From Treponemataceae bacterium (lineage in GTDB: Bacteria; Spirochaetota; Spirochaetia; Treponematales; Rectinemataceae): a stretch of DNA of 64,000 bases. Position 1 is the first letter of the stretch; each line of letters starts with the position of its first letter. The stretch is taken from assembly GCA_963677895.2 (NCBI GenBank), contig CAXXGJ010000012.1:32001-96000 (forward strand), given 5' to 3'. The position numbers and the translations under genes are program-made. Below, in pieces: positions 22,642-40,127 of this stretch. Below the pieces are notes generated by a model that searched no databases, was not told the DNA's origin, and saw only the letters and a list, made by a program, of their open reading frames with translations.

Positions 22642-22654
22642 GAGGAACGGAATA

Positions 22655-23532
22655 ATGGCACAGAAGATCAAGGCGGCCATCATTGGCCCAGGCAATATCG
22701 GCACCGACCTCCTCATCAAGTTGAGGAGGAGCCCCTTCCTCGAGGTAGCCTACGTGGTGGGCGTCAAGGAATCCCCCGGCATAGAGATCGCCAAGGGTTT
22801 CGGCATCCCCACCACCATCAGGGGCATCGATGAGATTGCTCGAGGTCGAGGACATTAGGATAGTGTTCGACGCCACAGGCGCCGGACCGCACATGATCCA
22901 CGCCCCCGGGCTCAAGGCCGCCGGCAAGATCGCCATCGACCTGACGCCTGCCGCCGTCGGCCCCTATGTCGTGCCCTCGGTCAACTTCAACGAGGAAATC
23001 TTCAAGCTCGACAACGTCAACATGGTCACCTGCGCAGGGCAGGCCACCCTCGCCCATCGTCTACGCGGTCAACCGCGCCGCCGACGTCTACTACGCCGAG
23101 GTCGTCTCCTCGATCTCCTCCAGGAGCGCGGGGCCGGGCACGCGGCAGAACCTTAACGAATTCATCGAGACGACGACGAAGGCTCTGAGAACTGTCGGCG
23201 GCGCCGACCAGGCCAAGGCCATCATCGTCCTCAATCCCGCCGAGCCTCCCATATTGATGCGCAACACCATCCTCTGCAGGGTGCGCAGGCCCGATCTGGC
23301 GGTCATCCGCGAATCGATCGACAGGATTCTCGCCGACGTGAAAATCTACGTTCCCGGCTATCGCTTCCTCGTCGAACCGATTCTCCAGGGCGACACCGTC
23401 ACGACCGTCATCGAAGTGGAAGGCCTGGGCGACTTTCTGCCCAAACACACGGGCAACCTGGATATCATAAACGCCGCCGCCGTGGCGGTGGCGGAGAAAT
23501 TCGCCCGGCGCATTCAGGAAGGCAAACGATGA
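22655..23532 (+). pseudogene. mhpF: Acylating acetaldehyde dehydrogenase (MhpF/DmpF), frameshifted twice (real lesion or assembly error)
   Basis: Three consecutive frames give IIGPGNIGTDL / [28 protein letters not shown] / [25 protein letters not shown]; shifts near 22835 and 23048. Confidence 0.88.
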
Positions 23533-24556
23533 GCAAGGTCTACATAACCGACACGAGCCTGAGGGACGGCAGCCACTCCGTCTCGCATCAATACACGAGC
23601 GCCGATGTAGCCGCGGTCGCGGGGCGGCGCTCGACGATGCCGGCATCGACATCATCGAGGTGAACCATGGCGACGGCCTCGGCGGTTCCTCGCTGACCTA
23701 TGGCTATTCGCTGGAAAACGAGCTCGACCTCGTCTCAGCGGCGGCCAGGGTAGTCAAGAGAGCGCGCATCGCCGTCCTCCTCGTGCCCGGCATCGCCACC
23801 CTGGATCTCCTCGAGGAAGCCCAACGCCGAGGCGCCAGCGTCGTGCGCGTGGCCACCCACGTCACGGAGGCCGACGTTTCCGAGGAATACATCAAAGCGG
23901 CCAAGAAGATGGGCATGTTCGTCGTGGGCTTCCTCATGATGGCCCATATGGCCGACACGGCCAAGCTCGTGGAGCAGGCCCTCATCATGGAATCCTATGG
24001 CGCCGACGTGGTCTATGCCACCGATTCGGCCGGAGCCCTTCTGCCCGACCAGGTAGGCGAACGCGTCGCGGCCCTGAAAGCCGCACTCCAGATTCCCGTC
24101 GGCCACCATGCCCACGACAACCTGGGCTGCGCTGTCGCCAATTCGCTCGCTGCCGTGAAAGCGGGCGCCACCTATGTGGACGGCTCCCTCGGCGGAATGG
24201 GCGCCGGCGCTGGCAATTCAGCCACCGAGATGCTCGTAGGCGCCTTGAAGAAATCCGGCGCCGATGTCGCCGCCGACCTCTTCAGAACCATGGACGCGGC
24301 GGAGAAAGTCCTTCTTCCCATCGTGGCACAGAAGGGCAAACCCCTCCCGCGCCACGACTCCAACTCGCTCATCATGGGCTACGCTGGCGTCTATTCCAGC
24401 TTCATGCTCCACGCGAAGAAGGGCGCCGAGCGCTTCGGCGTCGACGTTCGCGACGTCCTTATCGAACTGGGGAAGCGCAAGGCTGTGGGCGGTCAGGAAG
24501 ACTGGATTATCCAGGTGGCCTACGACTTGGCCAAAGCTGCGGGAAAGCCCGTTTGA
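23529..24556 (+). pseudogene. mhpE: 4-hydroxy-2-oxovalerate aldolase (MhpE/DmpG), one frameshift near 23620
   Basis: ATG at 23529 reads [17 protein letters not shown]; continues in another frame as ALDDAGIDIIEVNHGDGLGGSS...HAHDNLG...GYAGVYSSF. Confidence 0.88.
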
Positions 24557-24597
24557 ATTGAGAGAGGCGGCGCGGGGGAACCCGTTTGTACGCGATT

Positions 24598-24629
24598 ATA
24601 TATGTGAACAATGTGCTACATAGCGGCAC
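24598..24629 (+). promoter_or_regulatory. Second copy of the operator-like motif, upstream of the third TRAP operon
   Basis: ATATATGTGAACAATGTGCTACATAGCGGCAC aligns without gaps to ATATATAAGAACGATGTGCTACAATGTAGCAC at 20918-20949. Confidence 0.65.
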
Positions 24630-24656
24630 TTGTAGGGTATTCAAGGAGGAATCATC

Positions 24657-25629
24657 ATGAAGAAAGGGATTATCGCTCTTCTCGTCCTGGCGATGCTGTT
24701 CGGCGCGACCGCCGGCGCTTTCGCCCAGAAGGAACTCAAGCTCGGCCACATCGCCGCGCCCAACACCGCCTACGACAACTGGGCCAAGGAATTCAAGGCG
24801 CAGGTCGAAGCCGGCACCAACAACAGGTATAAGATCGTCATCTATGGCGGCGGCCAGCTCGGCGACTCGGGCCCCCCTCATGGAAGCCATGCAGGCCGGG
24901 AACCTTCAGTTCGCCGTCATCACCTCGGGCGACGCCAGCCAGTTCATCAACGCCATCAACGTCCTCGACATGCCCTTCCTGTTCAGGAGCTGGGATCACG
25001 TTGAAAAGTTCATCGCCTCGAAGACGGCCAGGGACCTCCTCGACCTCTCCGATCAGTATGGTCTCAAGTCGCTCTCCTTGATGCCCCGCGGCTACCGCCA
25101 CGTGACGAACGCGAAATTCCCCATCAACAAGCCCGAAGATCTCAAGGGACTCAAGATGCGCATCAGCGAAAGCCCCGTCCTCGTCGAGGCCTTCAAGGCG
25201 ATGGGCGCCAACGCGCAGGCCATGGCTTGGTCAGAAGTGTACACCGCTCTCCAGCAGGGCACGGTCAACGCTCATGAGAACACCATCATCACCACCCGCG
25301 ACTACAAGATCAACGAAGTGCAGAAATACGTCTCCGAGACTGGACACGTCTTCGCCATGGCTACGCTCATGGCTTCGGGCGACTGGTTCAAGAAGCTTCC
25401 GAAGGCGGATCAGGACATAATCCAGAAAGCCGCCACGGACGCGGCCTACAAGCTCGGACTGGAGCAGGAAGCCAACGAGGCTAAGGCCAAGGCCGAACTC
25501 ATTTCCAAGGGCATGGTCTTCAACAGCCTCGATACCGAACCCTTCGTCAAGGCTGTCCAGCCCGTCATCAACAAGTACGCCAAGGGCGACGTCAAGAAAT
25601 TCTACGATGCCATCCTGGCGATAAAGTAA
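24657..25629 (+). pseudogene. TRAP substrate-binding protein DctP, frameshifted in a C-run near 24872-24877
   Basis: Signal peptide and YGGGQLGD in one frame; LMEAMQAG...DLKGLKMR...ALQQGTVNAHEN in the next. Confidence 0.88.
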
Positions 25630-25657
25630 TCCAGACCGACAAATATTTTTCTTGGGT

Positions 25658-25692
25658 GGCTGTCCTGGTTGCGACCAACTTCCAGGACAGCC
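25658..25692 (+). other. Intercistronic stem-loop after dctP
   Basis: GGCTGTCCTGG-N13-CCAGGACAGCC followed by TTT. Confidence 0.75.
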
Positions 25693-25725
25693 TTTACTCG
25701 CCTGCCTGACGCAAGGAGTATTTAT

Positions 25726-26223
25726 ATGAAAGCGTTGCTGAAAACCAGCGACATTCTTGACAAGATCTGCGGCTGGGTCATCGTAGCGCTGTTCATGTTG
25801 ATGACGATTACCTACGCCACGCAGATTTTATTGAGATATGTTTTCGGAACCGGCCTGATGTGGACGGAAGAACTAACCCGCTACGCCGATATATGGGCCG
25901 TGATGATCGGCGCGGCGATGATCGCCAAGCGCAGGAGCCATATCAACGTGAGCGTGCTTGAGGAATACCTGCCCAAAGCGTCCAGGGCTTGGCTCCTCGT
26001 CTTCCAGCAGCTTCTCTCCCTCGTATTTTTCGTCGCGATGTTCTTCATCGCCTTTAAATTCATAAAGCTCGCCGGCACCCAGGTGAGCACCAACATGCGC
26101 ATACCCAAGCGCTGGGTATATTGGATATTCCCGCCCGCCTTCGGAGTGTTCATATTCCAGACCCTTGTCGGAACCCTCAAGGGAGCGCAAGAAGCGAAGA
26201 CCGCCCAGGAGGCCAAATCATGA
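25726..26223 (+). CDS. TRAP small permease (DctQ)
   Basis: Start MKALLK after AAGGAG; QILLRYVFG...WTEELTRY. Confidence 0.9.
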   Translation: MKALLKTSDILDKICGWVIVALFMLMTITYATQILLRYVFGTGLMWTEELTRYADIWAVMIGAAMIAKRRSHINVSVLEEYLPKASRAWLLVFQQLLSLVFFVAMFFIAFKFIKLAGTQVSTNMRIPKRWVYWIFPPAFGVFIFQTLVGTLKGAQEAKTAQEAKS

Positions 26224-27484
26224 CCCTGCTGCTTTTCGGATCCGTCCTTGTCCTCCTGGCGGTAGGCGCTCCCATCGTCACGGCGATGGGCGGCTCAGCC
26301 CTTCTCACCATATTCGCGTCGGGCATCAATCCCACCACGGCTGTCCAGCGCTTTTTCGCGAGCATCGATTCGGCGGCCCTCTTGGCCATCCCCTTCTTCA
26401 TCCTCGCCGGCGACCTCATGAACAAGGGCGGACTCGCGAAGCGCCTCATCGGTTTCGCGGGCCTCTTCGTGTCGAAGATTACGGGCGGCATGGGCATGAC
26501 GGCCATCCTCGCCTGCATGCTCTTCGCCGCCATCTCTGGCTCGGGCATAGCCACCGCCGCGGCTATCGGCGGTGTCATGATCTCGGGCTTCAAGGACCAC
26601 GGCTATAAGCCAGCCTACGCGGCGGCCATCGTGGGATCGGCGAGCCCTATCGGCATAATCATCCCGCCGAGCATCGCTTTCATCATCTATGGAACGCTGT
26701 CCAAGGCATCGGTAGGCCAGCTCTACAAAGTCGGCTTCCCCGCAGGAATCATGGTAGGCGTCGCCTTGATGGTCGTCACCTTCTTCACCGCGAAAAAGCA
26801 TAAGATTCCCCGCGAGTCCAAGGGCCTCGGCAGCAAATCCGTCAAGGAAGTGGTGATCGACACAGCTTGTCGCCCTCGGCACGCCCGTGATCATCAGTGG
26901 GCGGCGTCTTTCTCGGCGTCTTCACCCCCACCGAATCGGCGGTCGCGGCTGTCATTTATTCCATTATTATCGGCGTTTTCGTGTTCAAGGAAATAAAGCT
27001 CAAGGAGCTGCCCGGCATATTCCTCCAGTCGGCCATCAGCTCGGCGGGCATCATGATCATCATCGCGGCCGCTTCCCTCTTCGCCTGGACCATGGTCTAC
27101 ATGCAGATTCCCCAGAAAGCCTTCGAGGCCGTGCTTTCCGTCGGCATGAGCAAATACACCCTCCTTTTCGTCGTCAATATCATTGTCCTGATAGCGGGCA
27201 TGTTCATGGAGTCGGGCTCGATACAGATCATCCTCGTGCCCCTCCTGCTGCCTATCCTCGAAGTGCTGCAGATCGACCTCGTGCACTTCGGCATCATTCT
27301 GACGACCAACCTCGCGATCGGCATGCTCACCCCTCCCTTCGGACTGACTCTCTTTACCGCGTCGCGCGTGCTGAAGGCTGATTTAAAGGATACTATCAAG
27401 GAAGCTTGGCCCTTCCTGGGCGCGATGGTCATAGTCCTGATGATCATCACCTATGTGCCGGCCTCGGTGATGTGGATTTTGTGA
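26220..27484 (+). pseudogene. TRAP large permease DctM with two frameshifts at ~26860-26900
   Basis: LLAIPFFILAG, AISGSGIA, IIPPSI in one frame; LVALGTPVII in a second; GGVFLGVFTPTES...TPPFG in a third. Confidence 0.88.
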
Positions 27485-27506: not shown

Positions 27507-28313
27507 TCATCGCTTGAGGCGCTTTTCCAGCGTCCTGACGAGGAGGGATAGGCTGAGCGTGAGGCAGAGGTAGAAGAAGGCGACGGCGTTGTAAGTCTCG
27601 AAAAACTTGAAGGTGGAGGCCGCGTAGACCTTGCCAAGCTGGGTGATATCCTGGACGCCGAGGGCGGAAACGAGCGATGAATCCTTGATGATGGCGACGA
27701 ATTCGTTGCCGAGGGCGGGCAGGACATTCCTGATAGCCTGGGGCAGAACGATGCGCCACATCACCTGAAGGTGCGACATCCCGAGGGCTTCGGCGGCTTC
27801 GACCTGGCCTTTGTCCACGCTCTCTATGCCCGCGCGGAAGATTTCAGCGATGAAAGCCGAGTAGCCGAGGGTGAGGGCCAGGACGGCGCGCGTGGCGAAA
27901 TCGAAGCTGCGCGCCTCGACACGGCCGATGAGCCCCGACGCGATGAGCGGTGTCAGGATGACGTTGAGCGCTTGAGCGAGAGCGGGAGCGCCGACGAAGG
28001 CTATGTAGTACAGTATGACGAGCATGGGAAGGCCGCGCACCAGCTCGATGTAGAAGGTCGCCACTTCGCGAGCGGTGCGGAGCCGCGACGAACGCAGGAG
28101 CCCCAGCCCGAGGCCGAATAGTATCGACGCGGCATACGCGATGAGCGATACCATCAGCGTGACGCCGAGACCGCGCGACACGGCGCCGAATATGACGCGA
28201 TAATCGGCCGCGGCCATGGCGGACGCGAGGAGCCAGCCCCCGAGGCCTACGATGGCGACGAGCCACCAGGGGATGCGATCCAGTGCCGTCTGCTTAATTC
28301 GGGGTCTGCGCAT
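27507..28313 (-). CDS. Polar amino-acid ABC transporter permease (HisM/GlnP family)
   Basis: YIELVRGLPMLV, AEIFRAGIESVDKGQVEAAEALG (EAA loop), LPQAIRNVLPALGNEF..KDSSL. Confidence 0.93.
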   Translation of the reverse strand: MRRPRIKQTALDRIPWWLVAIVGLGGWLLASAMAAADYRVIFGAVSRGLGVTLMVSLIAYAASILFGLGLGLLRSSRLRTAREVATFYIELVRGLPMLVILYYIAFVGAPALAQALNVILTPLIASGLIGRVEARSFDFATRAVLALTLGYSAFIAEIFRAGIESVDKGQVEAAEALGMSHLQVMWRIVLPQAIRNVLPALGNEFVAIIKDSSLVSALGVQDITQLGKVYAASTFKFFETYNAVAFFYLCLTLSLSLLVRTLEKRLKR

Positions 28314-30173
28314 AAGATGGTCCTTTTACCTGCATTGGTCCCTCGCAGGGCAATTCGATGAAAAAGACGGTATTGCCCGGTTCGCTTTCGCACCATATCC
28401 TGCCGCCATGAACTTCCGTTATATGTTTGCAGATCGACAGGCCAAGGCCGGCATGTCCGTTTCCGCTTTTTTCGCTCAGGAAGGGCGTGAAAAGACTGGC
28501 GATCTTGGCAGGCGGGATGCCGGGGCCGCTGTCCCGTACCTGCAGGAGGGCGCTATTGTCGGCCTGCTTCCGAAGTCGGACTACGATGGAACCACAGCGT
28601 CCCGCTACATCGAGCGCATTCATGAGGAGATTGATCAGAACTTGTTTGATTCTGGCGGGATCTATACGCAGCATCACCGGTTCGCTGGGTATATCGGCTT
28701 CCAGGCTGATGCCGAGACGTTCCGCTTCGTATTCAAGCAGGACAAGCGAATCCTTGATGACCGCGTTGATGTCATGCGGGCTCAATGCCGACGAATCGAC
28801 GCTCGAAAAGGACAGGAGATTAAGCATGCTTCCATGAATTCGCTTTATCTCATTTCGGATGATTTCGAGCCTTTCACGCGCATACTCGTCGTTCGTCTTC
28901 ATGAGCAGGAGTTCCACATAGTTGGAGATGATGCCGAGAGGATTGTTCACTTCGTGAACTATGCCCGTCGCCAACTGGGCGATGGACGAAGTTCGGTCTA
29001 GGCTTGCTAGATAGTCCCGTGTCGCCCGTTCTTCCGTTACGTCCTGAAGTACGAGGATGGTTCCAAATAGCTGTTTTAGACTGTCGTGGAAGGGTAGGTC
29101 ATCACATTGACGAATCTGCCGTTCGCCGTCGGCCACTGTTTCCATTTCGCCGGCACTCCCGATCTTATGGAATCCATGATCAGCGCCAGTCGTTTATCGC
29201 CGAAACCATTCCGCAGCGCCAAGGCGGTCAGGGGAATAGCCGCCGCAGGTTCTCCCGCCTGTGACGCGGGAATCAGCGTTTTTGGGTCCGTGCAGATAAT
29301 GTCGCAGGCCGATTGATTCGAGAGGTATATTTCGCCTTCCCCGTCGAAAAAGACCGTTCCCAAGGGGAGATTGGAGACAATTTCCTCATTGTACTTTTTG
29401 TATTTCAGCAGGCGGATATTCTTGCTGAACAGTTCTTCCCTCGACTCGTTGAAAGAATAGGCGAGATCGACAATGTCCTCTCGGTCAAGGCTTCTGGCCG
29501 GTTGGGTTTCGACGATTCTTCCCGCTTTTATAATCGATATGATATCAGCGATCCTCAGCACCTCGTCGACGTTGGAAGCCGCATAAAGAACTGCCTCATT
29601 ACCGCTCCGTCTTTCCGCTAAAACGGAATAGAGCACCTGCATTTCGTCGGCGGTAAAGCGACCCGAAGGCTCATCCAGAATAAGAATTCTCGGATTAAAG
29701 GCCAAAGCTCGCCCTAGCTCGATGACGGTGGATTCTATTCTCGCCAGCCGATGCATGGGTAGACGCAGATCCGGATGAAGGCTCCACTTTTCGCAGAGCG
29801 CGAGAATGAAGGCCTCTATTTCATCGCGCATATTGCCCGACGAAAAACCGATGGACATCCTCCCGGCCATGATGTTTTCCCAGGGCAGAAGAGTCGGAAT
29901 GATGTTCTGCGTTTGATGGAAAACGCCAATACCAGCCTGGGCCATAATCTTTGGATTGCGTTTCACCAGGGGGATGCCATCGATGAGAATCTTGCCTCTA
30001 TTGAGGATCATCTTTCCTTCGAGGAGGGAGACGATGCACGATTTACCCGCCCTGCGTTCCCCGATGATGGCGTGCACTTCACCGCTCGCCGCCATCAGGC
30101 TGAACTCGTCGAGCGCTATCGTCTCCCTGTAGGAAGCCGTGACGCCACGGAGCTCAAGTCCTTGCATCGTCAT
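28294..30173 (-). CDS. Hybrid sensor kinase: ABC-ATPase-like domain + PAS + HisKA + HATPase, split by a 1-nt frameshift near 29090
   Basis: ORF 29076-30173: GEVHAIIGERRAGKS, ILILDEP, then PAS start IVSNLPLGTVFFD...N; ORF ending 28294: PAS end GTILVLQDVTE, HEVNNPL, QVLINLLMNA, DSGPGI, LFTPF, GLGL. Confidence 0.85.
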
Positions 30174-31533
30174 CCATGCCAAGCTTTTCGAGCTTGTTGT
30201 AGAGGGTTCGTCGCGGTATTCCCAACAGCCGAGCGGCCTCCGTCCTGTTTCCCTTTGCCTTGTCGAGCGCTTCAAGAATCATGTTACGCTCCAATACCTG
30301 CCGTGCCTCACTCATCGAATTCCGGGATGCATCCGATTCCTTTGATTCATCGAGGCAGGAAGCGACTACGTTTCTGCCTATTCCCATCTTGTACTGTTGC
30401 GGAAGATGCCTGGGGCCAAGGTGGCGGCCGTCACAGAAGATGATGGCGCGCTCGATGCAGTTTTTCAGTTCACGGACATTTCCGGGCCAGGGCTGCGCCT
30501 CGAGGATGGCTAGGAACTCATCGTCGATGAGGGGTTCTTCCTTCCCGTAGGAACGCGAGAAATCGGCGACGAAACGTTTCGCGAGAACGGGAATGTCCTC
30601 GATATGCTCGCGAAGAGGGGGAGTCTGGATGCAGATCACCGAGAGCCGGTAATAAAGGTCTTCCCTGAACATGCCTTTTTCGATGAGCGTGTGCAGGTTC
30701 TGGTTGGTCGCCGATATGATCCGGGTATTGGCATTAAGGTCCTTGGTGCCGCCCAACCTGCGGAATTCCCCTCCCTGAAGTATATGAAGGAGTTTCGACT
30801 GGAGACGGATGTCCATATCCCCGATTTCATCGAGGAAGACGCTGCCCTGACTGGCGCTTTCGAAAAGCCCCGCTTTTCGTGCAAGAGCGCCCGTGAAGGC
30901 TCCTTTTTCGTAGCCGAACAGCTCGCTTTCGAGAAGTGTGTCGGGTATCGCGGCGCAGTTGATTTTCATGAAAGGATGGGCGGAGCGCAGGGACTGGTTA
31001 TGTATAGCTTCGGCTACCAGTTCCTTTCCCGTGCCGCTTTCGCCCGTGATGATGACGGAGGCTTCCGTGGGGGCGATGCGCTCGATCGATTCCCGCAGTT
31101 CGCGAATGACCAGGCTTTCTCCGTAGAGGGCGCCGACAGCATGATTGGGAGTTTCCGGCAGCTGATTGGCGCCTGCCAGTTTGCATTGATTCAGCTGGTC
31201 ACGCAGCTTCCTGAAATCCAGCGGCTTGGTGAAAAAGTCCATGGCGCCGTATTTCATGGCCAGCACCGCGGTTTCCACGGACGGGTAACCTGTCATCATG
31301 AAAATCCTGAGGTTGGGCGATATGTCGCGGAGCTCCTGGATGAGATCTAGGCCGCCGCGACCCGGCATGCGCACGTCCACGATGGCTATGTCGGGATGGC
31401 CACCGCTAGTCTGTTCGAGCGCGGAGACGGCGCCGTCCGCCAACATCGTCTGGTAGCCTTCGCTCTGCAGGAGTTCGCCGAGCGAAGCCCTCATGGGCTG
31501 CTCGTCGTCGACGATAAGTACCTTCGTTTTCAT
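30154..31533 (-). CDS. NtrC/AtoC-family sigma54-dependent response regulator
   Basis: Receiver (VDDE, IVDVRMP, KP); AAA+ GESGTGKE, GAFTGA, FLDEIG; C-terminal Fis-type HTH. Confidence 0.97.
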   Translation of the reverse strand: MKTKVLIVDDEQPMRASLGELLQSEGYQTMLADGAVSALEQTSGGHPDIAIVDVRMPGRGGLDLIQELRDISPNLRIFMMTGYPSVETAVLAMKYGAMDFFTKPLDFRKLRDQLNQCKLAGANQLPETPNHAVGALYGESLVIRELRESIERIAPTEASVIITGESGTGKELVAEAIHNQSLRSAHPFMKINCAAIPDTLLESELFGYEKGAFTGALARKAGLFESASQGSVFLDEIGDMDIRLQSKLLHILQGGEFRRLGGTKDLNANTRIISATNQNLHTLIEKGMFREDLYYRLSVICIQTPPLREHIEDIPVLAKRFVADFSRSYGKEEPLIDDEFLAILEAQPWPGNVRELKNCIERAIIFCDGRHLGPRHLPQQYKMGIGRNVVASCLDESKESDASRNSMSEARQVLERNMILEALDKAKGNRTEAARLLGIPRRTLYNKLEKLGMDDDART

Positions 31534-31584
31534 ACCGTGCCGCCAGTGTATACCATTTGGCTCGAAAGGACAAAGGCGAATCGC

Positions 31585-32595
31585 TCAGCGGGGCTTCTTC
31601 TTGGAGTAGGAGTCGATGCCCACGACTACCAGGATGATCAGGCCTTTTATGACATACTGGATGAAGACCGGCACGCCGAGGAGATTGAACGCGTTGGTGA
31701 CGACGGTAAGGAGAAGGACACCTATCATGGCGCCGAGAACCGTGCCTTCGCCGCCGGAAACCGAGGTGCCGCCGATGACCACCGCCGCGATGGCGTCCAT
31801 GTCATAATTCTGCCCCGCGAGAGGCGTGGCCGACGAAAGTCGGGATGCGTAGACGACGCCTGAGATGCCCGCCATAAGGCCGCCGATGAGGAAAGTCATG
31901 ACGTGGTAGAAGTCCACGGAGACTCCGGCAAGCCGCGTCGCTTCTTTGTTGCCGCCGACGGCGCAGCAGTAGCGGCCGAGCTGGGTCTTGGAGAGAATGA
32001 ATTGAAAAATGACGACAAGCGCGATCATTATGATGACGGGTACGGGAATGCCCCATAGATAACCGGAGCCGATTACCTCGAATGCTGGCTGCTGGCCGTT
32101 AATAGGGTAGCCGCCGGTATAGAGATAGACGAGGCCGCGTACGATGGTTGAGGTGCCCAACGTCGCTATCATAGGAACAATGTGAATCTTCGCGGCGAGA
32201 ATACCATTGAAGAGACCTATCAGCGCGCCGGCGAGGATAGCGATCATGGCGGCCAAGGCCCAGTGCATCGAGCCTTGCAGCCCGAGCGCCAACGCCGCCG
32301 ACAAAGCAAGCACCGATCCGACGGAGATATCGAATCCTCCACCGATGATGACGAAGGTAGTGCCTATGGCCATGATACCGACGATCGTGCTCTGCCTGAG
32401 GATGTTGAGCAGGTTCCTGGAGGAGAGAAAGTTGGGTGTAAGCAGGGAAATCCCCAGCGAGAGCACGAAGAAGCTGATGAGCAGGCCGTAGCGTTTTAAG
32501 ATTTCTTTGTAGTACTGCCTCTTTTTTTTAGTAGCCTCCATACCGCCCGCTTGGATGGAAGTCGCCGCTTTAGCATCGATATCGTTACCGCTCAT
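31585..32595 (-). CDS. Monosaccharide ABC transporter permease (RbsC family)
   Basis: GMT-like GTTFVIIGGGFDISVGS, AVGGNKEATRLAG, DAIAAVVIGGTS. Confidence 0.95.
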   Translation of the reverse strand: MSGNDIDAKAATSIQAGGMEATKKKRQYYKEILKRYGLLISFFVLSLGISLLTPNFLSSRNLLNILRQSTIVGIMAIGTTFVIIGGGFDISVGSVLALSAALALGLQGSMHWALAAMIAILAGALIGLFNGILAAKIHIVPMIATLGTSTIVRGLVYLYTGGYPINGQQPAFEVIGSGYLWGIPVPVIIMIALVVIFQFILSKTQLGRYCCAVGGNKEATRLAGVSVDFYHVMTFLIGGLMAGISGVVYASRLSSATPLAGQNYDMDAIAAVVIGGTSVSGGEGTVLGAMIGVLLLTVVTNAFNLLGVPVFIQYVIKGLIILVVVGIDSYSKKKPR

Positions 32596-34129
32596 TGTTC
32601 ACCTCGATCATATCTTTTAGTAGTATATCTTCCGATGGTGGAATCGCATAAGAACGCTTGATCTTCCCTTTTTGCATGACCAACACTCTGTCGGAGACCA
32701 CAAGGAGTTCGGCGGGATCGCCGGAAAGATAGATAATGGATTTCCCTTTCGACGCAAGATCGCGCACCGTCGCGTAGATCTGTTCCTTCGTGGCGACATC
32801 GATGCCGCGCGTGGGCTCATCCAGAATAAGAACCTTCGGGGAGGCTAGCAGCCATCGAGCCAAGACACATTTCTGCTGATTGCCGCCGCTCAGGAATTTT
32901 ACCCGCTGATCCAGGCTGGCGAACTTGATTGAAAGTTGGGCGGCCACGGCTGTCGTGCGGTTTTTTTCTTTTTTTGCGTTGATGCATCCGTACTTGACGA
33001 TGCTGGGCAGGGACGAAAGGGAAATATTGCTTTGAATGTCCTGTTCGAGGATCAGCCCCTGCGTTTTGCGGTCTTCCGGCGCCATGCCGATCCCATGGTT
33101 GACCCCATCGTAAGGGGAACGAAGCTGTATCGGTCTGTTCTCCAGGGTTATGGAACCGCTGTGGCTGACCGACGCGCCGGAGAGCGTTCGCGCCAGTTCC
33201 GTCTTGCCCGAACCCACGACGCCGGCGATTCCGAGCACTTCGCCCGCGCGAAGTTCGAATGAAATATCCGAAAATTCGGCGCGTCGACCGAGGTTCTTTA
33301 CCACCAGTTCTTCTTTTTCGCCATGAGCCCTTACGAAGGGCTTTCGTTCCGCCACTTCCTTGCCGAGCATTAGGGTGACTATTTCCTTGATCGGCAGAAG
33401 GGGCGAGATGCGCTCGGCGACTATTTTCCCGTCGCGGATCACCGTCGCGCTGTCGGCGATGCTTTTCACTTCATCCAGGAAATGCGTTATGAAAACGATG
33501 CTCATGCCCTCGCGCCTAAGGTCGCCGACAGTCTTGAAAAGGAGCGCGGTTTCCTGCGAGCTGAGCGCGTCGGTGGGCTCATCCATTATGATGATGCTGC
33601 AGTTGCGCGATACCGCCTTCATTATTTCGGCCATCTTTTTCTGCGCGGGGCTGAGATCGCGGACCTTCGTCGCGGAGGGAATGTCCAGGTCGAATCGCTC
33701 GCAGAGCTTTTCGTACTCCGCCTGCATGAGTTTGTCGTTCAATATTCCCGAACCCTTTGTGGATTCGCGGCCGAGAAATAGGTTTTCGATGATGGTAAGG
33801 CTGGGGATGAGGCTCGATTCTTGGTGCACGACGCTGATTCCCGCCCTGTAGGCATGGATGGGTTTGCTGAATTGGACCGGTTTGTCATGAAGGAATATCT
33901 GGCCGCTGTCCGCGTGATAGACACCGGAAAGAATCTTCATGAGCGTCGATTTTCCCGCCCCGTTGGCGCCGAGAAAAGCGACGACTTCGCCTTTTCGGAG
34001 ATTGAAATCGACGTTATCCAGTACCTGGACGCCCAGAAAGCTTTTTGAAATGTTCTTCATGGCGAGAATGACGGGAGGGGCAGCCGCATTTCCGCCCTCT
34101 GACCTTCGCGAATTTTCTTGAATATTCAT
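32585..34129 (-). CDS. Monosaccharide ABC transporter ATP-binding protein with two NBDs (RbsA/MglA family)
   Basis: GANGAGKST, IIMDEPT, FITH, LSGGNQQK, ILDEPTRGID. Confidence 0.96.
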   Translation of the reverse strand: MNIQENSRRSEGGNAAAPPVILAMKNISKSFLGVQVLDNVDFNLRKGEVVAFLGANGAGKSTLMKILSGVYHADSGQIFLHDKPVQFSKPIHAYRAGISVVHQESSLIPSLTIIENLFLGRESTKGSGILNDKLMQAEYEKLCERFDLDIPSATKVRDLSPAQKKMAEIMKAVSRNCSIIIMDEPTDALSSQETALLFKTVGDLRREGMSIVFITHFLDEVKSIADSATVIRDGKIVAERISPLLPIKEIVTLMLGKEVAERKPFVRAHGEKEELVVKNLGRRAEFSDISFELRAGEVLGIAGVVGSGKTELARTLSGASVSHSGSITLENRPIQLRSPYDGVNHGIGMAPEDRKTQGLILEQDIQSNISLSSLPSIVKYGCINAKKEKNRTTAVAAQLSIKFASLDQRVKFLSGGNQQKCVLARWLLASPKVLILDEPTRGIDVATKEQIYATVRDLASKGKSIIYLSGDPAELLVVSDRVLVMQKGKIKRSYAIPPSEDILLKDMIEVNNER

Positions 34130-35373
34130 TTAGAGTCCTCGTGATGCGGTGACATCGTATCCATCGAGGCTATAGCCTCGATATGCCGCTTGGGCACGTA
34201 CAGTATATTCCAGCATACGGCAATGTTTTGGCCCGAGAGGCTTTTAAGGTACGAATCGCGTACGCCATCGTCGATCTGAGTATCGTAGGCTTCGTGCTGG
34301 ACTAGCTCGATGCCCGCGTAGATTTCTGGTTTGGGGGCCGCGGCGGGATCGATTTCCCGCTTACAGCGGAGCAGTTCCGACGCGGCGATCGAAGCCGGGA
34401 AATTTCCTTTTCGGCGCACCACCTCCAGGTATTCACGGCCCATTCCGGAGAGCTTGGAGACGAAGTCCACGGCTTTTGCCGCGTCGATACCCGATTCTTC
34501 AAGCCCCTTCATCAAAAGGAAAAATTCCAGTGGCATCCCTGCCGGAGCCCAAGCTTTACAGTAGAGCATCGGCTTCATGAAATCCGCGTGGCGCGACAGC
34601 GAACGATAATCCTGGCCGACGAAACCGGCCAGCGCGGGCGCGAAGAGATCCAGGCCGACGCTGAGGCCTTCCGCGTGAGCGGCATCGGCATAACGCGTCA
34701 CCGCGTTATTGACCATCCATGAGCGGAACTGAAATGCTTTTCTGGCATTCTCGATGAAGTCTTGGGCGCTACCGACGCTCTGAGCCGCGTGCCGGACGAA
34801 GAGCGAAGCAAGGTCGGACCATGCTTCGCCGCTCCAGGCGCGATAGGCTTCCTTGCATAGGGGACAGGAACAAGCGCTCATGAATTCGAGGCCGTTGGCG
34901 GGGGAGGGGTACCGTATCCGGTCGAGGAAGATGCCCCGCGCGCCGATGGATTTCGCCGCCCGAAGCGCGGAATCTATGCCCTTTTCGTCCTTTCCCAGGG
35001 CGCTGGGACAATAGAAGAGGAACTTTTCGTCGCCTTTCCCGATATTCTCCCAGGCGCCGGTGGCGCCGTATCCCGTCCTACCTTGAGCGTCCTGGACATT
35101 GGGAAAAGAAGACAGGGCGGCGGGGCGGTCGGCGAAAACCATCACCCATAAAGAGACCCTTGTACCCACTCTGTCACAACGCTCCGTGATCTTCCGAGCC
35201 AGATAGCTCGATGACTTGGTTATGGATAGAATCAGTTCCCGGGGAGCGAGGGCATCGAGCACATAGTTTAGACATGCCAGTATGCCGGCTTCGCCGAAAT
35301 GGGCCAGCTGTTCGGGGCCGACCATCAGCTGCGCTGCGATTTTGCCGCCGTTTCTTGTCAATTTAGGTTCCAT
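34126..35373 (-). CDS. Uncharacterised protein, probably a glycoside-hydrolase-like TIM barrel
   Basis: Start MEPKLT; GIFLDRIRYP followed by CSCPLC, then VGQDY...DFMKPMLY; lies inside a sugar ABC operon. Confidence 0.6.
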   Translation of the reverse strand: MEPKLTRNGGKIAAQLMVGPEQLAHFGEAGILACLNYVLDALAPRELILSITKSSSYLARKITERCDRVGTRVSLWVMVFADRPAALSSFPNVQDAQGRTGYGATGAWENIGKGDEKFLFYCPSALGKDEKGIDSALRAAKSIGARGIFLDRIRYPSPANGLEFMSACSCPLCKEAYRAWSGEAWSDLASLFVRHAAQSVGSAQDFIENARKAFQFRSWMVNNAVTRYADAAHAEGLSVGLDLFAPALAGFVGQDYRSLSRHADFMKPMLYCKAWAPAGMPLEFFLLMKGLEESGIDAAKAVDFVSKLSGMGREYLEVVRRKGNFPASIAASELLRCKREIDPAAAPKPEIYAGIELVQHEAYDTQIDDGVRDSYLKSLSGQNIAVCWNILYVPKRHIEAIASMDTMSPHHEDSK

Positions 35374-35387
35374 TGTTTTCTCTTGAG

Positions 35388-35421
35388 CGGCGGGAAATCC
35401 ACCGAAGAGGACTCCCCGCCG
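35388..35421 (-). other. Intercistronic stem-loop with cUUCGg tetraloop after the sugar-binding protein gene
   Basis: Minus-strand RNA CGGCGGGGAGUCC-UCUUCGGU-GGAUUUCCCGCCG pairs fully only on the coding strand (G-U pairs). Confidence 0.75.
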
Positions 35422-35438
35422 GTTGTTGGAGGATGGGA

Positions 35439-36371
35439 TCACATCTCGGGAACGTGTTTGCTCACATTGTTCTTGTCGACGATGACGGGAATGACTTCGA
35501 TGTAGGAATCGATCTTCTTTCCGGAAAGATATTCGGCGGTTTTCTGGACGGCCAGATAACCCATGTCTATGATGGAAGCATAGGCCGTCATATTGACGCT
35601 TCCGGCCTTGATCTCGGCCTGGAGCGCCTTAGAATACTCGAGGGCGGTGATGTATTTCCCCTTGAGTCCGGCTTCCCTGATGGCTTTGGCCGCGGCAACC
35701 GCGCCGTCCGTCCATTCGGCGGAGACGAGGTCGAAATCCTGTCCTTTCTGGAGAAAGGCTTCCATAGCCGCGAGCGATCCTTCCTTGGTCCAGCCGGGAA
35801 TCGCCTGGCTGTAGATGATCTTGTACTTGCTGTTCGCGAGTTCGGCCCTGAAACCGTCGTTTCTCATGCGCTGGGCGCTGGTTCCCGGCTCTCCTTCGAT
35901 GAGGACGATGTTCGCGGCTCTGTCGCCCAGAAGCTGTTTGGCCATCTTGCCCATCATGGTGCCATAGGAGAGGTCGTTGATGCCGATGAAGGTGACGACG
36001 CCGGGATACTGCCCGTTCTTGTCGGAGCCGAGCGTGTTGGTGAACGTAATGAGGGGGATCTTGGCTTCGTTGCACATTTTTACCGCCGGAAGCAGGGCGA
36101 GAGGATCGCGGGAGCAGAGCATGATGGCGTCTACGCCCTTGGCCACGAAGTTCTCCACCTGGTTAAGTTGTTTTCCCGCGTCCCATTCGGCGTCGGAATA
36201 GGTGAGCTGAAGATTGAACTCGGCGGCTGCCTTGTCCATGCCTTTGCGTTCCACGGCGAAGAACTCGACGGATCCGGGAAGACAGACGGCGACCTGCTTC
36301 TTCTTGGCTTGGGCGGAAACACCGGTTATCAGCACCAACGCGCACAGAAGAACGCCAACGATTCGTTTCAT
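35439..36371 (-). CDS. Sugar ABC transporter substrate-binding protein (RbsB family)
   Basis: Signal peptide; DAEWDAGKQLNQVENFVAKGVDAI; GEPGTSAQRMRNDGF; RBS AAGGAGG. Confidence 0.95.
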   Translation of the reverse strand: MKRIVGVLLCALVLITGVSAQAKKKQVAVCLPGSVEFFAVERKGMDKAAAEFNLQLTYSDAEWDAGKQLNQVENFVAKGVDAIMLCSRDPLALLPAVKMCNEAKIPLITFTNTLGSDKNGQYPGVVTFIGINDLSYGTMMGKMAKQLLGDRAANIVLIEGEPGTSAQRMRNDGFRAELANSKYKIIYSQAIPGWTKEGSLAAMEAFLQKGQDFDLVSAEWTDGAVAAAKAIREAGLKGKYITALEYSKALQAEIKAGSVNMTAYASIIDMGYLAVQKTAEYLSGKKIDSYIEVIPVIVDKNNVSKHVPEM

Positions 36372-36413
36372 GTAGAAACCTCCTTAAGATAATCTGGAAA
36401 CTCAAGGTAGTAA

Positions 36414-36431
36414 TAGCATATCCCATGCCAA
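36414..36431 (-). promoter_or_regulatory. Sigma54 (-24/-12) promoter
   Basis: Minus strand TTGGCATGGGATATGCTA has exact GG-N10-GC spacing, ~45 nt upstream of the first gene of an operon that encodes a sigma54 activator. Confidence 0.8.
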
Positions 36432-36551
36432 AAATGCGGTATGTACAATAAATCTGGCCATATGCTATTTCCATTCCATGAAATAAATTGTCGATACGGA
36501 GTTCTGTAAAAAAGCCTATGCGCGGGATGCTCCGCTAATTTTTACATTCTT

Positions 36552-36601
36552 TGTTCATTATTTAGCACAGAAAACGTCCTGTCTGTGCCATTACTGGCAC
36601 A
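36552..36601. promoter_or_regulatory. Two tandem enhancer-like (UAS) sites, TGT-N12-ACA
   Basis: TGTTCATTATTTAGCACA (36552-36569) and TGTGCCATTACTGGCACA (36584-36601), 32 bp apart. Confidence 0.6.
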
Positions 36602-36628
36602 GACGGGATTCTTGGATAGCCGCTGTCT

Positions 36629-37426
36629 TTAAGGCTTGTACTCGAAGAACCACTTGGTGTTCAGCCTGTCGAGGAAGCCTTCGGTTTTGAGGGCGGCGAT
36701 GGCCGCGTTGAAAGGGCCGACCAGGTCGGAACCTTTCTTGAAGATGAAGCCGAACTCTTCGGTGCCGAGGGCGCCGCCGACCGATTTCAGCTTGTTGGGA
36801 TAGGCGCCGATGTAGCCTTTGCTGGAGGCGGCGTCCATGAGCACCATATCGATGTCCCCGGCGATCAGGGCTTGGACCGTGGCGCCGAAGGTTTCGAAAA
36901 GCTTGATGCGGGGATTGGCTTCGTCGCCGTCGAGGACGTTGTAGACGGCCACATAGAAGTTCGTGGTGCCCGCCTGGGCTCCGATGAGGAGCTTGGGATT
37001 GGCCGCGAAAGCCTTTTCATCCTGGAAGCGGTTTTCGCTGGCGCGCACGAGCATGAACTGCTGGCTCACCATGTAGGGGCTGGAGAAGTCGACCTGGCCC
37101 TTTCTTTCGTCCGTTATGGTGATGCCGTCCATGCCCACGTCGAACTGTCCGTCGCGCACGGCCTGGATCATGGTGTCCCAGGAGGTGATCTTCCATTCGA
37201 TCTTGGCGTTGAGACGCTTGCCGATCTCGTTCACCGCGTCGTATTCCCATCCCATGGCTTTGCCGGTTTTGGCGTCGACGAAATTGAGGGGCAGATAGGC
37301 GTTTTCGGTCACGGCGATGATTTTTCTTCCCTTGAGGTCGGGAAGCTTGGCGGTTTGGGCGCCGGCGGCTAAGACCGTTGCGAAGACCATGGCGAATACC
37401 ATAAGCATGAATGTCATCTTTCGCAC
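36629..37426 (-). CDS. Polar amino-acid ABC transporter substrate-binding protein (family 3)
   Basis: Signal peptide; ENAYLPLNF, GITITDERKGQVDFSSPY, GAQAGTT. Confidence 0.95.
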   Translation of the reverse strand: MRKMTFMLMVFAMVFATVLAAGAQTAKLPDLKGRKIIAVTENAYLPLNFVDAKTGKAMGWEYDAVNEIGKRLNAKIEWKITSWDTMIQAVRDGQFDVGMDGITITDERKGQVDFSSPYMVSQQFMLVRASENRFQDEKAFAANPKLLIGAQAGTTNFYVAVYNVLDGDEANPRIKLFETFGATVQALIAGDIDMVLMDAASSKGYIGAYPNKLKSVGGALGTEEFGFIFKKGSDLVGPFNAAIAALKTEGFLDRLNTKWFFEYKP

Positions 37427-37659: not shown

Positions 37660-38010
37660 ATGAATGAAGATATTTGCAGTCAGTTCGGCATTTCCTGTCA
37701 GGACAAGGCGCCAGGGCTGAGGGATTCCCTCCTCGACGTGGCGGGGCTTTCCGAGCTTTTCAAGTCCATGGCTGACGAGTCGAGGATAAAGATTCTCTAC
37801 CTGCTGTCGCAGCAGGAACTTTGCGTCTGCGATCTGGCCTTCCTTCTAGAGACCAATCTGCCGGCCATTTCCCATCATCTGAGGTTTCTGAGAAGTCTTA
37901 ACCTCGTGCGTTCGCGCCGGGACGGAAAGCAGGTGTTCTACACCCTCTCCGACAGCCATGTTCTGGAGCTGCTGCAGATCGCCAGAAACCACTACATCGA
38001 GAAGCTTTAA
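37660..38010 (+). CDS. ArsR/SmtB-family metalloregulator (CadC/ZiaR-like)
   Basis: N-terminal Cys residues, ELCVCDLA, AISHHLRFL, DSHV...H alpha5 site. Confidence 0.93.
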   Translation: MNEDICSQFGISCQDKAPGLRDSLLDVAGLSELFKSMADESRIKILYLLSQQELCVCDLAFLLETNLPAISHHLRFLRSLNLVRSRRDGKQVFYTLSDSHVLELLQIARNHYIEKL

Positions 38011-38021
38011 CGAGGCGGAAA

Positions 38022-40127
38022 ATGACGAAGTACTACATGAAAGGTCTCGATTGCGCCAACTGCGCGAATAAAATCGAGAATGAGCTGAGGAAGAACAAGG
38101 GTTTCGAATTCGCCACCGTCAATTTCGCCACCAAGACCTTGGCCCTCGACGCCGATTCGGAGGAGCTGGCCAAGAATATAATCGGGAATATCGAGCCATC
38201 CGTCGAGCTTCTGCGCGCCGATTCGGGCGCCCCGAAGGAAGAGGAATCCCTCGGAACCTGGTCCATCGTGCGGATCATCGCGTCGGCCGTCCTTCTTCTA
38301 GTGGGCATTCTCTTCGGAAGGCAGCTGCGCGCGACGGCGGGCGATTTCGCCGAATATATCGTTCTCGTTCCGGCATATATCCTCGTGGGTTATCCGGTGC
38401 TGAAAAGCGCCTGGATGGACCTGCTGCGCGGCAGGATTTTCAACGAGATGTTTCTCATGGCCATAGCCACCGTGGGAGCCTTCGCCATCGGGCAGCTGCC
38501 CGAAGCGGTGGGGGTCATGCTTTTTTATTCCGTCGGCGAGTACCTGCAGGAAAGGGCCGTGGCGAGGTCGCGAAGTTCCATTTCGCGCCTCATGAATCTC
38601 CGCCCCGAGTTCGCCCGCATCGTCACCGCCGGACAGGGAAGGATCGTCGATCCCGAACAGGTGATCGTGGGCGATGTCGTCGAGGTGAGGCCCGGCGAGA
38701 GGGTTCCGCTGGACGGAACCATCGTCGAGGGCGAATCCTTCGTGGACACTTCGTCGCTCACCGGCGAAGCCGTGCCCCGGTCCGTGGGCATCGGGGAAGC
38801 GGTCAAGGCGGGGTATGTCAACGATACGGGGCGGATTCTCGTGGAGGTGACCGCTCCCTTCGGCCAATCCTCGGCGGCGCGCATACTCGATCTCGTGGAA
38901 AACGCGGCGACGCACAAGGCGCCGACCGAAAAGTTCATCACGAAGGTAGCGGCCTACTATACGCCCTTCGTCGTCATTTCGGCCGCCCTCATCGCCTTCA
39001 TCCCTCCCCTCCTTATCCCCGGCGCCACGCTCTCCGACTGGCTCTATCGCGCCCTCGTCCTCCTCGTCATTTCCTGCCCCTGCGCCCTCGTCATATCCAT
39101 TCCCTTGGGCTATTTCGGCGGCGTGGGCAGCGCCTCCCGCCATAAGATCCTCGTCAAGGGCGCGAATAGCCTCGACGCTCTCCTCAAGGTGGACACGGTC
39201 GTCTTCGACAAGACGGGCACGCTCACGAAGGGCGTCTTCGAGGTGGTGAAGGTGGACGCGGCCCACGAATTCAGCGCCGAGCAGGTGCTGCGCTACGCGG
39301 CGGCGGCCGAGCGTTATTCGCCGCACCCCATAGCCAGGGCGATTCGGAAGGCGAGTCTGGACTGCGAAGCCGATGAAGTTGGCGAGGTGAGGGAAGTGAA
39401 GGGCCGCGGAGTGTCGGCCATCGTCGCCGGCAGGAGCGTGCTCGCGGGCAATGAAAGCTTCCTGAAAAACGAGGGCATCGCGATCGAGGCAGGAATGGCA
39501 AGGGCGGGAACCTTGGTTCATGTGGCCGTCGACGGAACCTACGCCGGCCAGATTCTCGTCGCCGACGTACTCAAGGATGAAGCGGCCTCCATCGTGGGCC
39601 AACTCAAATCCCTCGGAGTCCGCCGCGTCGTCATGCTCACCGGAGACAGGGAATCGGCGGCGGAGGAGACCGCGGCCGCGGTAGGCGTCGACGAATACTT
39701 CGCCGGACTTCTGCCTGAAGACAAGGTCGCGCGGCTGGAAGCCTTGAAGGCATCGGCCCCCGCCGGGAAAAAAGTCGTCTTTGTCGGGGATGGCATGAAC
39801 GACGCACCTGTCCTCATGAGGGCGGACCTCGGGATAGCGATGGGCGGCCTCGGCTCCGACGCGGCCATCGAGGCTTCCGATATCGTGATCATGGACGATG
39901 AGATCGGGCGGATTCCCCTCGCCATGAGGATCGCCGTCTTCACGAGGCGCATTGTCATGCAGAACGTGGTCTTCTCCCTCGGCGTGAAGGCGGCCTTCCT
40001 CCTCCTCGGCGCGGCGGGGGAGGCGAACATGTGGGAAGCGGTGATCGCCGATGTCGGCGTGGCCCTTCTGGCCACCCTCAATTCGATTCGGGCGGCGAAG
40101 TTCGATAGTCCCCGATCGCCTCGATGA
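38022..40127 (+). CDS. cadA: P1B-type heavy-metal (Cd/Zn/Pb) translocating ATPase
   Basis: GLDCANC, TGE, SCPCAL, DKTGT, HP, GDGMNDAP. Confidence 0.93.
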   Translation: MTKYYMKGLDCANCANKIENELRKNKGFEFATVNFATKTLALDADSEELAKNIIGNIEPSVELLRADSGAPKEEESLGTWSIVRIIASAVLLLVGILFGRQLRATAGDFAEYIVLVPAYILVGYPVLKSAWMDLLRGRIFNEMFLMAIATVGAFAIGQLPEAVGVMLFYSVGEYLQERAVARSRSSISRLMNLRPEFARIVTAGQGRIVDPEQVIVGDVVEVRPGERVPLDGTIVEGESFVDTSSLTGEAVPRSVGIGEAVKAGYVNDTGRILVEVTAPFGQSSAARILDLVENAATHKAPTEKFITKVAAYYTPFVVISAALIAFIPPLLIPGATLSDWLYRALVLLVISCPCALVISIPLGYFGGVGSASRHKILVKGANSLDALLKVDTVVFDKTGTLTKGVFEVVKVDAAHEFSAEQVLRYAAAAERYSPHPIARAIRKASLDCEADEVGEVREVKGRGVSAIVAGRSVLAGNESFLKNEGIAIEAGMARAGTLVHVAVDGTYAGQILVADVLKDEAASIVGQLKSLGVRRVVMLTGDRESAAEETAAAVGVDEYFAGLLPEDKVARLEALKASAPAGKKVVFVGDGMNDAPVLMRADLGIAMGGLGSDAAIEASDIVIMDDEIGRIPLAMRIAVFTRRIVMQNVVFSLGVKAAFLLLGAAGEANMWEAVIADVGVALLATLNSIRAAKFDSPRSPR

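Follow-up and report, generated by a model that had tools for sequence, protein, structure and literature searches.

How could a histidine kinase without any extracytoplasmic domain be informed of a sugar outside the cell? The question is raised by six genes in 64,000 nt of DNA from a Treponemataceae bacterium (GCA_963677895.2, contig CAXXGJ010000012.1, positions 32,001-96,000, forward strand), hereafter the window. They encode a sugar ATP-binding cassette (ABC) importer, an enzyme, an NtrC-type sigma54 activator and a kinase that starts with an ABC nucleotide-binding domain (NBD). The answer we propose, with a probability of roughly one half, is that the soluble NBD-kinase takes the position of the ATPase on the permease, reads the loading of the binding protein there and switches on the importer genes.

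The genes of this cassette, in window coordinates and in their order of reading, are:

35439..36371, minus strand: sugar-binding protein of the CUT2 type, with signal peptide (Pfam Peripla_BP_4, E 4e-49)
34126..35442 (shorter start 35373), minus strand: glycoside-hydrolase-like (beta/alpha)8 barrel, probably cytoplasmic, of no named family (structure model, fold search)
32585..34129, minus strand: two-domain CUT2 ABC ATPase of the RbsA/XylG type (Pfam, NCBIfam)
31585..32595, minus strand: CUT2 permease, PF02653 (BPD_transp_2), of the RbsC type, with 8 hydrophobic segments
30154..31533, minus strand: NtrC/AtoC-type sigma54 activator (receiver, AAA+ and helix-turn-helix (HTH) domains), motifs intact
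28294..30167, minus strand: kinase with ABC NBD, linker, PAS, HisKA and HATPase, frameshifted here at 29091-29094

Adjacent genes overlap by 4, 4, 11 and 14 nt, with one gap of 51 nt; the coordinates and the Pfam domains bear out the first-pass annotation of this DNA, which had reported six closely packed co-oriented genes. It had also asked whether their order is conserved around homologues, and the order is kept in four relatives (G001, G002, G036 and G087) of the genome of the window (G000). The nearest homologues that have a name come from records labelled Rectinemataceae or Spirochaetota. The importer has the marks of CUT2 systems: a Peripla_BP_4 binding protein (best NCBIfam match RbsB, far under the cut-off), a two-domain ATPase with one complete site and a PF02653 permease, the sequence of which had no match in the PDB. 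The activator has the phosphorylatable aspartate (Asp53), the Walker motifs (A at 164, B at 234) and the GAFTGA motif (at 211) of the NtrB/NtrC-type systems, as well as a Fis HTH.

A family of kinases headed by an ABC ATPase domain

The intact kinases, on which the analyses of the family are based, consist of an ABC NBD (about residues 1-237), a conserved linker, a PAS-like domain, HisKA and HATPase. The chain includes neither a membrane transporter domain nor an extracytoplasmic sensor domain. The copy in the window has no signal peptide and no hydrophobic segment over 1.6, and only seven of 140 family members exceed 1.8; the earlier claim that the kinase lacks an extracytoplasmic domain therefore agrees with the absence of any detected membrane helix or signal peptide. 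The kinase core, which has the H, N and G boxes, adjoins the activator, and the H-box histidine is present in 67 of 70 aligned rows, the other three being truncated. When a model of the kinase was used in a fold search, the NBD resembled the LptB type and the other part LOV/PAS kinases. These were separate matches, and no match among those listed covered both parts.

A profile search of representatives at 50% identity gave at least 150 matches, of which 11 were dropped for their length. The family thus has at least 139 full-length clusters (570-660 residues) at this level of identity. Its named members are mostly Spirochaetota, and the named records include a metagenome-assembled genome (MAG) labelled Treponema, a Spirochaetota MAG and a KSB3 MAG with three copies. 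Using a profile of the linker, we found the kinase in 13 of 69 genomes of the window's own taxonomic family and in 14 of 401 genomes of a sample of the phylum, with up to four copies per genome. A scan of loci with the full-length alignment matched the kinase core, and 77 of its 80 loci were ordinary kinases that we did not use (L024-L026 were kept). A search for longer homologues, which started at 638 residues, above most members, found one.

In the ESM Atlas the matching cluster has no named function. Other clusters there (scores 0.83-0.85) also join an NBD to a histidine kinase, with other middle domains. They are ABC_tran-GAF-HisKA (about 830-850 residues, Actinomycetota, 166 and 64 members) and ABC_tran-HisKA (515 residues, Spirochaetota, 136 members), and are possibly independent inventions of the same idea. 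We found no description of an ABC NBD fused to a histidine kinase, nor of sensing by such a kinase, in the literature, subscription journals and supplementary tables of domain architectures, which may list the fusion, being outside the scope of the search. The NBD-headed kinases are a real family, and apparently an undescribed one.

Importers and sigma54 promoters beside the kinase

We analysed the genomic context of 43 kinase copies (20 linker matches in the own family, 18 further ones in the phylum sample, one and four from other searches; two more KSB3 copies are outside this set). An NtrC gene directly precedes the kinase in all of them. A PF02653-type importer is found beside 41 of the 43. 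There is a CUT2 permease in 40 of the fetched stretches, and a branched-chain (HAAT) importer, whose permeases are also PF02653, in L152. The linkage of NBD-kinase homologues to sugar ABC operons, without which the first-pass annotation would have given up its proposal, is therefore observed. As a control, none of the nine other NtrC-type genes examined in G000 is within 10 kb of a CUT2 permease, and 8.2% of the genome is. G000 encodes 11 NtrC-type activators in all. In L152 (210-8275) the regulator pair faces the importer, the only non-CUT2 importer partner seen, and the kinase is cut by the contig end.

The regulators are divergent from the importer operon in 30 of the 43 copies, downstream within it in nine (about four lineages), upstream with the promoter after the kinase in three, and convergent in one. 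A sigma54 site faces the target operon with a score of 7-8 of 8 in 38 copies, and of at least 6 in 42. It points away from the regulators in all 30 divergent loci (26 at score 7-8) and precedes the first operon gene in 8/9, 3/3 and 1/1 of the others. No site of score 7 or more was found on the regulators' own strand within 900 nt in any of the 43 copies (background 0.007 per 900 nt). With the regulators divergent from the sigma54 promoter in 30 copies, their control of their own expression cannot be central to the system. The shared transcript of sensor, activator and transporter, which the first-pass annotation had taken as the basis of the circuit, is not its rule, as only the nine copies with the regulators downstream in the importer operon would have it. 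In G000, one of 72 labelled importer or activator open reading frames (ORFs) has such a site within 400 nt, namely the locus described here, in a control that is imperfect because the site of a paralogous operon precedes an unlabelled first gene.

The regulatory elements before the binding-protein gene in the window are:

36415..36430, minus strand: sigma54 -24/-12 site, 59 nt before the binding-protein start
36552..36569, minus strand: enhancer-like dyad 2, 32 bp from dyad 1 (from sequence)
36584..36601, minus strand: enhancer-like dyad 1, the core of a perfect palindrome (36581-36604, each arm 10 bp; from sequence)

The -24/-12 site scores 7/8 in the window and 8/8 in G001, G002 and G036, with a genome background of 0.003 per 400 nt. 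Taken alone the site is weak: at one mismatch its pattern, which was drawn up after the site had been seen, matches the window three times, with 2.2 matches expected. The dyads are centred about 130 and 165 bp upstream of it. In the window's clade, where the dyads were examined, the promoter site and both dyads are conserved islands in all four aligned genomes while the intervening DNA diverges, and dyad 1 keeps its symmetry in all four. The promoter with two enhancer-like sites that had been reported at first is thus upheld. As predicted from sequence, dyad 1 is a likely NtrC-type binding site, and dyad 2 may be another. We rejected the palindrome 36581-36604 as a terminator, as it lacks a T-run and is absent from the terminator scan. 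Two rpoN genes are present in G000 (C2:196638 and C18:581595), so that, on sequence evidence only, promoter, upstream dyads and sigma factor are all there. NBD-kinases with their NtrC partners likely control PF02653-type importers via sigma54.

The enzymes encoded nearby vary: nucleoside hydrolase with PfkB, FGGY kinases, dehydrogenases, GatZ and DhaK. The ligands therefore probably differ between loci. In L019 (G000:C6:91666-102800), a paralogous system in the genome of the window, genes for nucleoside hydrolase, binding protein, ATPase, permease, PfkB kinase, NtrC and an intact NBD-kinase are followed by a second binding protein and permease, which overlap the end of the kinase gene. This second pair and that of L127 have no ATPase of their own and match each other best (48% and 44%). 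An extra sensory pair as a general feature was rejected, since it occurs in L019, L127 and perhaps L137 only. In L025 (1127-15940) two NtrC and NBD-kinase pairs stand back to back between two CUT2 operons, and each operon has a score-8 sigma54 site of its own.

Where the kinase may take its signal

In a quick tree 43 kinase NBDs formed one side of a branch (SH-aLRT 96), nearer to the N-halves than to the C-halves of CUT2 ATPases. As judged from these sequences, the kinase NBD is a single clade, descended from the N-half of the sugar ATPases of CUT2 importers. A local duplication of the operon's own ATPase was rejected by the tree, and the NBD is 27% identical to this cognate ATPase. Among the 139 representatives listed, the NBD keeps the Walker A lysine (97%), the Walker B aspartate (96%) and glutamate (88%) and the Q-loop glutamine (76%). 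The signature motif is absent, and the H-switch histidine is found in 63%, being absent in the window's clade. Two more positions set the kinase apart from 41 ATPase N-halves: the Walker A asparagine (98% in the N-halves) is a histidine in 70% of the kinase NBDs, and the D-loop proline (also 98%) is mostly lost. The Walker B glutamate is missing from the NBDs of L146, L147 and L149.

In CUT2 ATPases the signature is supplied by the C-half (100% of 41). The same is described for RbsA in passages of PMC11466899, where RbsA has one degenerate ATPase site, the pattern of the CUT2 ATPases here. By its sequence, then, the kinase NBD has the nucleotide-binding motifs and does not have the set expected of a hydrolysing homodimer (signature, D-loop, H-switch). 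Because it has no signature of its own, and that of CUT2 systems belongs to the C-half, an NBD homodimer would, by the established ABC mechanism, bind ATP and hydrolyse it poorly.

These motifs bear on whether the domain signals at all. It might be the leftover of an old fusion, with an ordinary PAS kinase regulating the importer, and the missing signature, the variable H-switch and the break of the window copy between PAS and HisKA would suit this. Yet the near-invariant Walker A lysine and Walker B aspartate are kept across 139 listed clusters that share less than 50% identity, and 139 of the best 150 matches are full length. In a mirror-tree test on 17 loci under 60% NBD identity, moreover, NBD distances track those of the kinase core (rho 0.82) and of NtrC (0.79). 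We consider a vestigial NBD very improbable.

The same residues could serve the sensing of flux. With Walker A and Walker B in place, and often the H-switch as well, the kinase NBD would have a half-site which the signature of the ATPase C-half could complete, and nearly all loci have a complete importer. The NBD might then bind a working transporter, either at the two-domain ATPase or at one permease site in a mixed complex, and be released or switched as the transporter cycles, much as in MalK-MalT or BceAB-BceS. We find this improbable, as both NBD-NBD contact elements have diverged (Walker A asparagine and D-loop proline), the ATPase has its own N-half covalently in place, and NBD distances do not follow those of the ATPase (rho -0.01).

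Docking on the permease is favoured because the partners stay PF02653, and because L019 and L127 add a binding protein and permease without ATPase. The segment after the Q-loop, which we take to be the permease contact in ABC importers, has Glu97 in 70% and Asn98 in 81% of the NBDs. Several results nevertheless weigh against it. This segment is looser in the kinases than in the ATPases (Pro91 38% vs 71%, Gly102 32% vs 83%). NBD distances are unrelated to those of the permease (rho -0.02) and of the binding protein (-0.03), although in the same 17 loci permease distances are tracked by the ATPase (0.40) and the binding protein (0.46), so nothing points to an interface that has co-evolved over a long time. 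The two-domain ATPase, being fused, should be a strong competitor for the same permease sites, and docking does not explain how a kinase would choose its own among the 21 permeases of G000. Most operons have one binding protein and one permease. No importer was found in the 20 kb fetched around L146 and L149: the sigma54 site faces a gene for a fusion of CoA-disulfide reductase, rhodanese and DsrE in L146 (4499-6970), and one for an ice-binding-like protein with Ig domains in L149 (5107-6864). Finally, the counts overstate independence, since close relatives are frequent among the 43 copies, and the 17 loci under 60% identity are the fairer sample.

Part of this evidence would suit a kinase that senses in the cytoplasm, its PAS domain binding the imported sugar or an enzyme product and its NBD acting as an allosteric or dimerising module that binds ATP or ADP, with no permease contact. 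Such a kinase would explain why NBD and permease do not co-diverge and why two of 43 copies have no importer nearby. The operon enzymes (nucleoside hydrolase, PfkB and FGGY kinases, dehydrogenases) could make the inducer, and the nucleotide-binding residues are the best-conserved part. Left unexplained are the CUT2-type NBD, the 41 of 43 PF02653 partners and the extra pairs of binding protein and permease, and the PAS region varies more than any other part of the alignment and is rich in gaps. Cytoplasmic sensing is in our view possible, if rather unlikely. Contrary to the initial claim, a signal has other visible routes than binding protein and permease, since a ligand in the cytoplasm could be sensed by the PAS domain or by the nucleotide-binding NBD. 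Judging by the distances, NtrC and kinase have, as a pair, exchanged their importer partners. A plug-in module whose docking face is generic for PF02653 would agree with this, and so would sensing in the cytoplasm.

Under permease docking, a kinase dimer would place its two NBDs on the two coupling helices of the permease dimer, and a signalling complex of binding protein, permease dimer and kinase dimer would exist beside the normal transport complex. As the signature is absent and the H-switch often lost, the NBDs would bind ATP with little or no hydrolysis and act as a conformational clamp. Docking of the binding protein would shift the permease, the NBDs would close or open, and linker and PAS would pass the change to HisKA. 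The phosphorylated activator would then bind the two dyads and open the sigma54 promoter, and the induced importer and hydrolase would take up and cleave a glycoside. More permease would mean more sensing platform, a feedback via the transporter that is conceivable in every arrangement. Feedback via the regulators would operate only in the presumably co-transcribed minority, which includes the window locus. We suggest, tentatively and at a little under even odds, that this would be a new class of receptor arisen by subunit exchange: the kinase dimer would take the seat of the ATPase, in a plug-in re-paired with many monosaccharide importers and one amino-acid importer.

Known sensing transporters act via membrane contacts, adaptors or a fused membrane domain. 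In PstSCAB-PhoU-PhoR and MalK-MalT the state of the importer ATPase controls transcription of its own regulon, via the adaptor PhoU or by sequestration of the activator; unlike in the NBD-kinase, there is no NBD inside a kinase. BceS is a membrane protein that touches a peptide-resistance transporter via membrane helices, and its regulator is not a sigma54 activator. The present kinase, by contrast, is soluble, carries its own NBD, sits with monosaccharide-type importers and does not have the two membrane helices typical of Bce-type intramembrane sensing. CbrA is a transporter part fused to a kinase and used for sensing. The likenesses are described in passages of PMC8534201: in BceAB-BceRS (Bacillus subtilis and other Firmicutes) a kinase without extracytoplasmic domain has an ABC transporter as its partner in sensing and induces the transporter operon, while in KsAmt5 a transporter part fused to a kinase has been turned to sensing. 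KsAmt5 and CbrA fuse the membrane domain, whereas here the fused part is the cytoplasmic motor domain, and the importer would lend its membrane domain in trans.

Binding proteins of the Peripla_BP_4 type also give the signal in XylFII-LytS, LuxP-LuxQ, TorT-TorS, ChvE-VirA and HptA-HptS, and XylFII-LytS induces a xylose ABC operon (passages of PMC8050422). Kinases of the XylFII-LytS type bind the binding protein with an extracytoplasmic domain of their own, which the NBD-kinase does not have. Its PAS-HisKA-HATPase core and the receiver-AAA+-HTH activator resemble AtoS-AtoC, ZraS-ZraR and NtrB-NtrC, the best NCBIfam matches, all under the cut-off. None of these kinases has an ABC NBD, and the AtoS match begins only at residue 252; family members carry the JGI label 'AtoS'. 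Transceptors are treated in PMC11109136, and in the passages of PMC12316311, on sigma54 regulons, we found none on monosaccharide ABC importers.

Transporter-coupled signalling is thus already known, and the present system would be categorically new if subunit exchange is demonstrated. An ABC ATPase as the input of a kinase would then be a further way of signalling across the membrane without a receptor of one's own, and the kinase would report the conformational cycle of CUT2 importers. The kinase-activator pair appears portable, and swapping the binding protein and permease could yield sugar biosensors with sigma54 output. The loci also suggest that free-living spirochaetes control the uptake of monosaccharides by sigma54.

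The enzyme, the host operon and the frameshift

The model of the cassette enzyme (pLDDT 93.7) is a (beta/alpha)8 barrel of glycoside hydrolase type, which gives the family of this enzyme, unnamed and with at least 140 members, a hydrolase-like fold. What had been called an unknown enzyme is confirmed as a gene and now has a predicted fold. The closest folds are the hydrolase domain of PgaB/BpsB (Z 22.8, root-mean-square deviation (rmsd) 3.8, 312 residues aligned, 12% sequence identity to PgaB) and Cwp19 (Z 21.9, rmsd 3.7, 285 aligned), followed by many chitinase-type barrels (Z 19-21). DUF4015 matched with 16 bits (cut-off 27), and weak matches to DUF4015, GHL10 and GHL13 occur in 69, two and one of 82 family members, respectively. 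Asp151, Asp242 and four cysteines are invariant in the 82 homologues aligned, out of 140. Searches of the PDB with the sequence gave no match, and no signal peptide was found. The model makes a cytoplasmic glycosidase likely; that its substrates may be amino-sugar glycosides is a guess from the fold.

The cassette is flanked by two genes of a host operon:

36629..37426, minus strand: amino-acid binding protein (Pfam SBP_bac_3)
27507..28313, minus strand: amino-acid permease, overlapping the kinase end by 20 nt (Pfam BPD_transp_1)

The upstream amino-acid binding protein was compared in 25 loci: in 18 the amino-acid permease comes directly after it, four have the cassette and three have neither. 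A contig of sequencing run X1 joins 28271 to 36633. By these comparisons the cassette has been inserted into the operon of an amino-acid ABC transporter, so that the circuit is less self-contained than it had first been described. A sigma70-like site precedes the amino-acid binding protein (37547-37518, promoter scan), and the terminator scan listed none between this gene and the cassette, which makes read-through from the upstream promoter likely. Such read-through would supply the basal level of the system.

The NBD-kinase, first described as one gene, is in the window two ORFs. It is one base short, compared with G001, in the homopolymer run 29091-29094, and the break separates NBD-PAS (to 29076) from HisKA-HATPase (29145-28294). 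In G001, G002, G036 and G087 it is a single ORF of 620-625 codons. A contig (28370-29863, depth 2.9) of X1, which may be the source sample, spans the break without any difference from the window. An X3 contig has an intact kinase and is otherwise identical to the window, and the X2 contigs end at the break. Seven other insertions of 1-2 bases (window 20000, 22834, 23047, 23621, 24872, 26864 and 26896) are absent from the X2 and X3 contigs, and five of them also from X1; these are assembly errors. The view that the break is a plain assembly error is weakened, since the bridging X1 contig carries it, whereas the X3 contig does not. A strain-level loss and a low-depth error are about equally probable. 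In the window strain the frameshift would uncouple the sensor from the kinase core.

The seven insertions split what we take to be aldolase/dehydrogenase and TRAP-type genes at 21853-27484. On the other side of the cassette, at 37660-41922, are what we take to be an ArsR-type repressor and a heavy-metal P-type ATPase, with a RecQ-like helicase on the other strand. In G002 (L017:1204-2895) an asparagine synthase gene lies between kinase and amino-acid permease, a second insertion at the end of the cassette.

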